DNA of 64,000 nucleotides from Escherichia coli (GCF_046105845.1 NZ_CP151004.1), one strand, 5' to 3'. Positions 61,242 to 61,589 are shown, counted from the first letter of the stretch. Numbers and translations: made by a program. The notes: generated by a model from the sequence alone, not told the origin.

Positions 61242-61271
61242 AAAAAAACCGACATGACAGTCGGTTTTTTT
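61242..61271. terminator. Bidirectional rho-independent terminator, for selU (plus) and for the candidate antisense sRNA (minus)
   Basis: aaaaaaaccgacatgacagtcggttttttt: perfect 6-bp stem with an A-tract on one side and a T-tract on the other. Confidence 0.75.
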
Positions 61272-61330
61272 ATTTTTTCCGCCCAAAACTTGGTGGTTCC
61301 GGGCAGAAATGAAACAGTCCTCATCTAGCA
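61242..61330 (-). ncRNA. Candidate antisense antitoxin sRNA (~89 nt) paired with the downstream small toxin ORF
   Basis: Minus-strand promoter TTTGAA(61365-61360)-N18-TATAAT(61341-61336); predicted 5' end at about 61330, the edge of a 16-nt repeat also found in the toxin leader; ends at the bidirectional terminator. Confidence 0.4.
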
Positions 61331-61589
61331 AGTGAATTATAAGTCAGGATGCCTACATATTCAAACAGCTATGTTGGCGATACAATCCCGACGCTAGTAG
61401 TGATACTGCCTCAAGGGATTACCGCAGTGCGGAAAAGTACTTTTAAGTCCTGGTCAGGATACAGGTGGTGCTGATTCTGGTGCTCTAATTTGGAGAGAGG
61501 CAGTCCTCATCTAGCACATGAAGAAAATCATAGTTACAGGCAACGTAAGGGTAAGCTGTGATTGTCTTTCTCCCTTAAGGGAGCAACGG

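Follow-up and report, generated by a model that had tools for sequence, protein, structure and literature searches.

A DinQ/AgrB-type toxin–antitoxin module very probably lies between mnmH and ybbP in Escherichia coli

The 712-bp spacer between mnmH (selU/ybbB; 60084–61178, plus strand) and ybbP (61891–63984, minus strand) on the E. coli chromosome very probably holds, at 61240–61722, a complete type I toxin–antitoxin module of the DinQ/AgrB family, an accessory chromosomal paralogue with a dinQ-like mechanism by homology. Coordinates refer throughout to the 64,000-nt stretch of DNA that was analysed (the window). A preliminary description had read a repeated 16-mer in this spacer as the mark of a divergent antisense sRNA directed against a toxin leader, and the analysis supports that interpretation. 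The description correctly recognised a type I antitoxin RNA de novo; no new mechanism emerges from the finding. Judged apart from the list of 14 published dql loci, the mnmH–ybbP copy is a new, unstudied member of a known family; a literature search combining dinQ with ybbP, mnmH, selU or ybbB found, among the matches listed, no publication on it.

The K-12 dinQ/agrB pair is reportedly the subject of a study that preceded the 2016 paper on this system. The DinQ/AgrB family was defined between 2013 and 2016, and its dql paralogues, 14 loci, were named in 2016 (PMC5066626); their antisense RNAs are predicted in T1TAdb (PMC8594479). The dinQ/agrB pair has been validated experimentally, whereas AgrA fails to repress dinQ and is inactive in vitro (PMC5066626). 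For dqlB/agrB of pOXA-48, antitoxin action by base pairing was proven with compensatory mutations in 2025 (PMC12365149). The features of the mnmH–ybbP module are collected in Table 1.

Table 1. Features assigned to the mnmH–ybbP module, in window coordinates
Feature	Position	Strand	Basis or remark
Predicted AgrB-family antisense sRNA gene, ~89 nt	61240–61328	−	Rfam RF02891, nhmmer, alignment to K-12 agrA/agrB
Bidirectional intrinsic terminator hairpin	61240–61273		14-nt arms, 6-nt loop, A and T runs on both sides
Address region, sRNA 5′ end (16-mer copy 1)	61315–61330	−	Perfect complement of leader 61501–61516
Predicted sRNA promoter	TTGAAT 61364–61359, 17-nt spacer, TATAAT 61341–61336	−	Promoter scan, 10/12 matches
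Putative toxin promoter −10, TACAAT	61381–61386	+	Inferred, not mapped; aligns with dinQ TATGAT and S. oryzae TATCAT
Predicted toxin mRNA, ~330 nt, 5′ UTR ~197 nt	61393–61722	+	Start at ~61393 (GCUAG...) inferred from homology
5′ element a (GCUAG)	61393–61397	+	Predicted to pair with the sRNA target in the primary transcript
Sequence-1 equivalent, ACUGCCUC	61405–61412	+	Predicted to pair with the sRNA target in the primary transcript
Predicted sRNA target in toxin leader	61492–61516	+	Perfect over 61501–61516 (16-mer copy 2)
G-U-rich target extension	61492–61500	+	Overlaps sequence-2 equivalent GGAGAGAGG
Sequence 3 (CUUUCUCCCUU) and sequence 4 with Shine-Dalgarno AAGGGAG	61566–61584	+	Predicted SD-sequestering hairpin, inverted repeat
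Putative toxin ORF, 27 aa, MKTFLDKVLIILKALIALLELIRQFIE, single-helix membrane peptide	61590–61673	+	NCBIfam DinQ model, identity to DinQ, PGAP
Predicted toxin mRNA terminator hairpin, AAGGCCGAAGGT / ACCTTCGGCCTT	61690–61718	+	Inverted repeat; homologous to dinQ and dql terminators
Probable relic of sRNA-gene 3′ end and terminator	61719–61758	−	83% direct copy of 61241–61280

The antisense RNA gene

Judged by its sequence, the minus-strand gene downstream of mnmH is a homologue of agrB and does not just resemble it in layout. The Rfam AgrB model (RF02891) matches it at 51.4 bits (gathering score 40) over its full length, model positions 1–84, and a profile built from seven family sRNAs, the window sRNA included, finds it with an nhmmer E value of 3.8e-18. 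The predicted RNA also aligns along its whole length with K-12 agrA and agrB, a homology by which its transcription would be expected. Its minimum free energy fold (−38 kcal/mol, z = −6.4) comprises a free 5′ tail, an internal hairpin and a terminator hairpin, which is the AgrB architecture of single-stranded 5′ antisense region, internal hairpin around CCACCAA and Rho-independent terminator. The consensus fold of 25 family sRNAs agrees with that of the window sRNA and includes compensatory pairs in hairpin 1. A small 5′ hairpin is predicted in the window sRNA as well and could hide part of the seed.

The preliminary description had proposed a minus-strand RNA of about 89 nt, and Rfam indeed aligns 89 nt, from 61328 to 61240. 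It had started this RNA at about 61330. With the −10 hexamer ending at 61336, transcription would be expected to begin at 61328–61330; the true 5′ end could lie anywhere in that interval, with homology favouring about 61328–61329. The promoter written there as TTTGAA-N18-TATAAT is TTGAAT-17-TATAAT shifted by one base, and it was the sole site that our scan reported in the region. Its position is homologous to those of the K-12 agrA and agrB promoters and aligns with that of a Serratia oryzae module. The terminator was likewise recovered, its hairpin and T-run extending slightly beyond the 61242–61271 given earlier.

The 16-mer CAGTCCTCATCTAGCA has two exact copies in the window, both on the plus strand; the second spans 61501–61516 and had been placed 1 nt too early, at 61500–61515. 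Two copies occurred in none of 100 shuffled sequences, with 0.02 matches expected by chance, and the repeat pair stretches to 22 nt at 91% identity. The complement carried at the sRNA 5′ end is perfect over 16 nt as had been claimed, of which 14–15 may be present in the RNA itself.

The hairpin begins 62 nt past the mnmH stop codon and is symmetric, as would suit a plain mnmH terminator, with the promoter match and the repeat beside it coincidental; moreover, the promoter scan was no richer in real than in shuffled sequence (1 site versus a mean of 1.3). This reading is refuted, and we give it practically no weight. The entire 89-nt stretch, not the hairpin alone, matches AgrB models, and the hairpin corresponds to the AgrB terminator stem in the Rfam alignment. 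In the O157:H7 strain TR01, which lacks the module, homology past mnmH ends at 61227 and is followed by a ylbG/rhs element (L008, 2548 onward); the hairpin therefore belongs to the module and not to mnmH, since homology stops 12 nt before it. Further, the repeat is unexpected by chance and co-varies across the family (see below). The hairpin would terminate the sRNA and may terminate mnmH transcripts as well.

Other Rfam models, including OrzO-P, RNAI, MicC and STnc370, gave sub-threshold matches, and those near the sRNA gene all cover its terminator hairpin. The module has a single sRNA gene and a 40-nt relic at 61719–61758, which is probably the leftover of a second sRNA gene or of a tandem module and sits directly after the toxin terminator. 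Arrays of three to four AgrB-like sRNA genes are found at Citrobacter and Hafnia loci.

The toxin gene and its promoter

The 27-aa ORF matches the NCBIfam DinQ model (NF041472, toxin_DinQ) at 37.2 bits against a cutoff of 30, and its peptide shares 14 of 19 residues (74%) with DinQ over the core (BLASTP). The DqlB model (NF041473) scores it at 23.2 bits, below its cutoff of 35. Homology with dinQ extends beyond the ORF: the alignment of the two mRNAs starts at AAGUCCUGGUCAG and takes in the SD hairpin, the ORF and the terminator. In RefSeq, PGAP gives the ORF at this site the name "damage-inducible type I toxin DinQ", and does so for about 1,300 of 5,426 complete E. coli genomes; beside it, the RefSeq record of ATCC 8739 carries no ncRNA feature. 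Translation from an in-frame ATG further upstream, at 61518, would yield a product of 51 aa (61518–61673), and comparable N-terminally extended ORFs are seen at other family loci; the SD is placed for the ATG at 61590. Such extended ORFs are common mis-annotations of dinQ-family loci (PMC5066626).

The toxin promoter has a weak −35 and was not reported by the promoter scan. A −10-like hexamer precedes the candidate mRNA 5′ end in 23 of 24 family loci. The sRNA −35 hexamer lies within the toxin −35 stretch, and the two promoters would thus stand back to back.

The absence of a LexA box upstream of the ORF, as first described, holds for both patterns searched in 61179–61890: neither CTGT-N8-ACAG with up to one mismatch nor the core CTG-N10-CAG was found. 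The box of K-12 dinQ was caught by the core pattern and fits CTGT-N8-ACAG with one mismatch. Among 24 family loci, the core occurs over the promoter only in the five of arsR–gor type (L002, L010, L014, L022, L036). Because it has no LexA box, the mnmH–ybbP copy is probably not SOS-induced, and for the same reason the name "damage-inducible" is unsupported for it.

Distribution and deletion variants in E. coli

Of 5,426 complete E. coli genomes, 1,332 have the mnmH–ybbP module, in every case on the chromosome, and in 1,317 of these it is at least 99% identical. Canonical dinQ/agrAB at arsR–gor is found in 5,422 of the 5,426, so the mnmH–ybbP module is a second, accessory copy; one Escherichia sp. 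genome carries both (L035, L036). Conservation of the module exceeds 98.7%, with 7–9 differences in 711 nt and none in either 16-mer, a level of variation too low for a test of selection on pairing. From 61228 onward, the module is an alternative to the ylbG/rhs element that strain TR01 has at the same site.

Nearly 15% of carriers (197 of 1,332) lack 61512–61612 and with it the SD and the toxin start, which implies that the toxin is dispensable. In CUVET19-970 (L007, 1823–1832), about 98 bp have been deleted between the target run CAGTCCTCATC and a similar run in the ORF, AGTTCTCATC, at toxin codons 8–11. This microhomology deletion removes the SD and start codon and leaves the sRNA gene intact, as an orphan antitoxin.

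Leader elements and a proposed mechanism of control

In K-12, the primary dinQ transcript is inert, with sequence 1 paired to sequence 2 and sequences 3 and 4 closing the SD; in dinQ mRNA lacking the first 44 nt, sequence 2 pairs with sequence 3 and the SD opens (PMC5066626). AgrB then occupies the sequence-2 region, which returns the SD to its closed state, and the duplex is cleaved by RNase III (PMC5066626). We placed the +1 of K-12 dinQ from the numbering in the same paper.

The conserved leader elements of this system, namely the a/a′ pairing, sequences 1–4 and the SD hairpin, are all found in silico in the window module. Sequence 3 can pair with sequence 4 or, alternatively, with sequence 2, and the hairpin is homologous to 3:4 of dinQ. 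The a/a′ pairing occurs in all 23 loci that have a candidate 5′ end. Its form GCUAG:CUAGC is unique to the window, whereas the other loci have GUUAG with CUAAC or GUUGG with CCAAC. The distance of about 75 nt between target and start codon stated in the preliminary description is borne out, the 3′ end of the target lying 74 nt before the ATG.

Predicted folds reproduce the published 1:2, 2:3 and 3:4 switching of the dinQ model (PMC5066626). In the minimum free energy fold of the full-length mRNA, 61393–61412 pairs with 61497–61515, hiding the sRNA target, and the SD is paired. In an RNA starting at 61438, 61492–61505 pairs with 61560–61573 and leaves 61506–61515 free as a landing site; the computed opening of the SD in this processed form is small, with a probability of being unpaired of 0.14 versus 0.01. 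When the target 61492–61516 is blocked in the fold, the SD hairpin returns (61570–61574 with 61579–61583). Blocking only the perfect 16 nt in the processed-mRNA fold did not re-close it, and a dinQ-type switch would therefore need the weak G-U extension.

These folds and the homology with dinQ suggest the following course of events. The near-consensus sigma-70 promoter would drive an AgrB-family sRNA of about 89 nt from the minus strand, and the unstructured 5′ end of this RNA would bind the toxin 5′ UTR at 61501–61516 and then the G-U-rich extension at 61492–61500. The primary toxin mRNA would be translationally inert, with 61393–61412 paired to the target region and the SD held in its hairpin. 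Processing of the 5′ end near 61438 would remove 61393–61412 and free sequence 2 to pair with sequence 3, which would loosen the SD hairpin and permit synthesis of the presumably toxic peptide. On the processed mRNA, the sRNA would take up sequence 2 so that the SD hairpin re-forms, and the duplex would probably be cut by RNase III. The whole circuit would probably stand outside the SOS response, unlike that of dinQ proper.

Pairing and covariation across the family

The duplex of the window pair is composed of 14–16 Watson-Crick pairs at 61501–61516 followed by about eight more positions, mostly G-U and with one mismatch. Upstream of the ribosome binding site, 16 nt of the toxin 5′ UTR are a perfect complement of the sRNA address (14–15 if the RNA starts at 61328–61329), where 15 nt is the minimum used as a criterion for such pairs; the window pair falls short of the usual 30–35 nt. 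From its 5′ end at 61328, the sRNA is separated by about 65 nt from the inferred toxin +1 and by 153 nt from the TGCUCU motif. Its gene is divergent, non-overlapping and 5′ of the toxin within 300–500 nt, the arrangement given as a criterion in T1TAdb (PMC8594479).

Covariation was measured on 24 distinct loci from Enterobacterales and plasmids; for each, the 21 nt at the 3′ end of the target were joined to the 5′-terminal 21 nt of the cognate sRNA. Standard pairs form in 96.4% of cells; shuffling lowers this to 73% and sliding the partner to about 40%. Of the 21 pairs, 18 have changed on both sides. On four of five measures, the observed covariation was reached by none of 500 shuffles; on the fifth, further pair types, it was reached by 7 of 500. 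The window adds a three-way compensatory change of its own, in which C at sRNA nt 1, G at target position 61514 and GCUAG at the mRNA 5′ end go together, and it supplies the only G-C at the outermost sRNA–target pair. The covariation supports the duplex as first proposed. Part of it could nevertheless stem from repeated inverted duplication or gene conversion and not from selection on pairing, because the sRNA gene is homologous, in inverted orientation, to a stretch of the leader.

Over the first 16 nt, the own target is the best partner for 23 of the 24 sRNAs, and the window seed has an energy of −26.8 kcal/mol with its cognate, the best among 24 targets and among the strongest seeds, compared with −16.6 kcal/mol with K-12 dinQ. 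Over 32 nt, none of the 24 loci has a weaker cognate duplex than the window (−35.3 kcal/mol; family mean about −54.2, non-cognate mean −33.8), because only the 5′ 16–18 nt of the sRNA pair well and the inner half has diverged in both partners. We used the 32-nt and 16-nt windows in place of a matrix of full-length sRNAs and 225-nt leaders, which discriminated poorly and was inflated because such duplex energies ignore intramolecular structure.

This weak duplex could also be that of a decaying relic, a DinQ/AgrB descendant without a working pair, with a silent toxin and a 16-mer that is the residue of an inverted duplication. The inner half of the usual 32-nt duplex has gone, leaving an energy level with the non-cognate mean; the toxin −35 is weak and its promoter escaped the scan; the truncated second sRNA copy points to past erosion; and 197 of the 1,332 carriers have lost the SD and start codon to the ~98-bp deletion. 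We nevertheless consider decay unlikely, since the ORF, the SD hairpin, elements 1–4, both terminators and the 10/12 sRNA promoter are all intact, and the address is perfect over 16 nt although the flanking duplicated sequence has diverged. Moreover, a lineage-specific change of the target has its counterparts in the sRNA and at the mRNA 5′ end, and the internal hairpin of the sRNA has been preserved via compensatory changes. Short pairing need not signal decay, as other type I systems function with 18–21 nt.

The sRNA could alternatively function mainly on canonical dinQ mRNA or on other trans targets, with the adjacent toxin secondary. Because G7 and G10 can wobble with U, its 32-nt pairing with K-12 dinQ equals that with its own target (−35.5 versus −35.3 kcal/mol); canonical dinQ is so nearly universal (5,422 of 5,426 genomes) that both always co-occur, and the sRNA is retained where the toxin start is deleted. 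The cognate seed, however, is far better, and retention in the deletion strains may be just recent history. AgrA provides a precedent: its duplex with dinQ is stronger overall (−41.9 kcal/mol), yet the seed mismatches and dinQ is not repressed (PMC5066626). Effective cross-talk between the window sRNA and dinQ is therefore unlikely, and we regard this alternative as distinctly improbable, more so than decay, and prefer a complete module whose sRNA addresses the adjacent toxin mRNA.

Divergent AgrB-type genes accompany the toxin throughout the family. The plasmid dinQ/dqlB loci L003–L006 each have a divergent AgrB match above threshold, and each of 34 toxin-leader matches in plasmids and species genomes has at least one divergent upstream AgrB-like gene, some three or four. 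When one genome per species was scanned for the pattern, 42 stretches matched; about 30 are true loci, including ones in Citrobacter, E. albertii, Pantoea, Serratia, Hafnia, Photorhabdus, Kosakonia and Buttiauxella. About 12 of the 42 (Aquimarina, Chlamydiae, Streptomyces and others) were chance matches with no toxin ORF, sRNA or repeat. Separately, DinQ/Dql modules turned up on short contigs labelled Haemophilus sputorum, uncultured bacterium, Lachnospiraceae MAG and Chryseobacterium (L011, L016, L022, L046); their sequences are identical or near-identical to enterobacterial or plasmid copies, for which contamination or plasmid carry-over is likelier than true hosts.

Comparison with known systems

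The preliminary description had likened the geometry to that of tisB/istR-1, shoB/ohsC, zorO/orzO and dinQ/agrB. For dinQ/agrB the likeness is true homology, while the others are not homologous at the level tested. In zorO/orzO, tisB/istR-1 and shoB/ohsC, a divergent trans-encoded sRNA has 18–21 nt of complementarity to a long toxin 5′ UTR that is activated by processing. The Rfam OrzO-P model scored 19–24 bits on the window sRNA (gathering score 60), covering the terminator region only, and no Rfam match to IstR or OhsC was reported at the window locus.

The window module and K-12 dinQ/agrB share a homologous sRNA and toxin in a divergent, non-overlapping layout with homologous terminators, and in both the sRNA 5′ end is directed at sequence 2, some 75 nt ahead of the start codon in a long 5′ UTR. 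Both have the a/a′ pairing, elements 1–4 and the SD hairpin, and K-12 dinQ/agrB appears alike in the −35 region that the two window promoters share. The two differ in location and prevalence, K-12 dinQ being nearly universal between gor and arsR, whereas the mnmH–ybbP copy is found in about a quarter of complete genomes. A LexA box overlaps the promoter of K-12 dinQ but is missing from the window copy; K-12 has agrA and agrB where the window has one sRNA gene and the 40-nt relic; and the K-12 dinQ duplex of about 32–34 nt contrasts with 16 perfect nt and a G-U-rich extension. The start codon is ATG in the window and GUG in K-12 dinQ. The addresses differ at three positions, each matched in both partners. 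Neither of the marks of dinQ proper, a LexA box at the promoter and the gor–arsR position with agrA and agrB, is found at the window locus.

The dqlB loci of pOXA-48 and other conjugative plasmids resemble the window in that each examined locus has a divergent AgrB-type sRNA with its own address. DqlB toxins have 31 aa (MINLLIIVLRAV...), whereas the window peptide has 27 aa and fails the DqlB model. The plasmid dqlB copy is an addiction module with a duplex of about 35 nt (PMC12365149), in contrast to the chromosomal window copy with its short duplex. The closest toxin sequences found (VKTLIDKVLIVLKALVALLELIRQFID) belong to Serratia oryzae (L013) and Serratia sp. H1w (L030), whose chromosomal modules align whole with the window module, including both promoters and the same sRNA-to-target spacing. 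These modules keep the full-length duplex (−64.1 and −53.8 kcal/mol, respectively), the inner half of which the window copy has lost; the window copy also shows a 1-nt insertion in each partner.

Other features of the window

REP/BIME-type palindromic elements occupy 61771–61882, between the module and ybbP; Rfam ES036 (CssrF) scores above threshold at 61811–61853 and naRNA4 below threshold. On the minus strand, within 4532–5383, two hok-family toxin ORFs stand in tandem at 4532–4720 and 5036–5224, with a period of 504 bp. One Rfam sok match (4676–4832 and 5180–5336) and one perfect LexA-type box CTGTTTATTTATACAG (at 4864 and 5368) accompany each hok copy, and 4532–5383 looks like a duplicated hokE/sokE-type locus. 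An Rfam match to the STnc480 sRNA (84.9 bits) at 48252–48318 and a tRNA gene at 26779–26852, both on the minus strand, are unrelated to the module.

Significance

A second DinQ-family toxin gene, accompanied by a predicted antitoxin RNA of its own, is present in about one in four sequenced E. coli. The value of the locus lies in its eroded duplex, its missing SOS control and the strains with an orphan sRNA. It offers a natural experiment on the minimum of pairing that an AgrB-type antitoxin requires, and it bears on the insulation of paralogous type I systems in one cell and on the fate of an antitoxin RNA after deletion of its toxin. One speculative extension, to which we assign a low probability, is that the window copy has given up the ~32-nt duplex and RNase III cutting typical of the family and is controlled by the seed only (16–18 nt), without SOS input, and that its sRNA is a one-way cross-regulator of the co-resident dinQ. 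The sRNA has G where AgrB has A and can therefore wobble with the canonical dinQ leader, whereas AgrB cannot pair with the window target. If true, such one-way cross-regulation would explain why the sRNA is retained in the roughly 15% of carriers whose toxin start is deleted.
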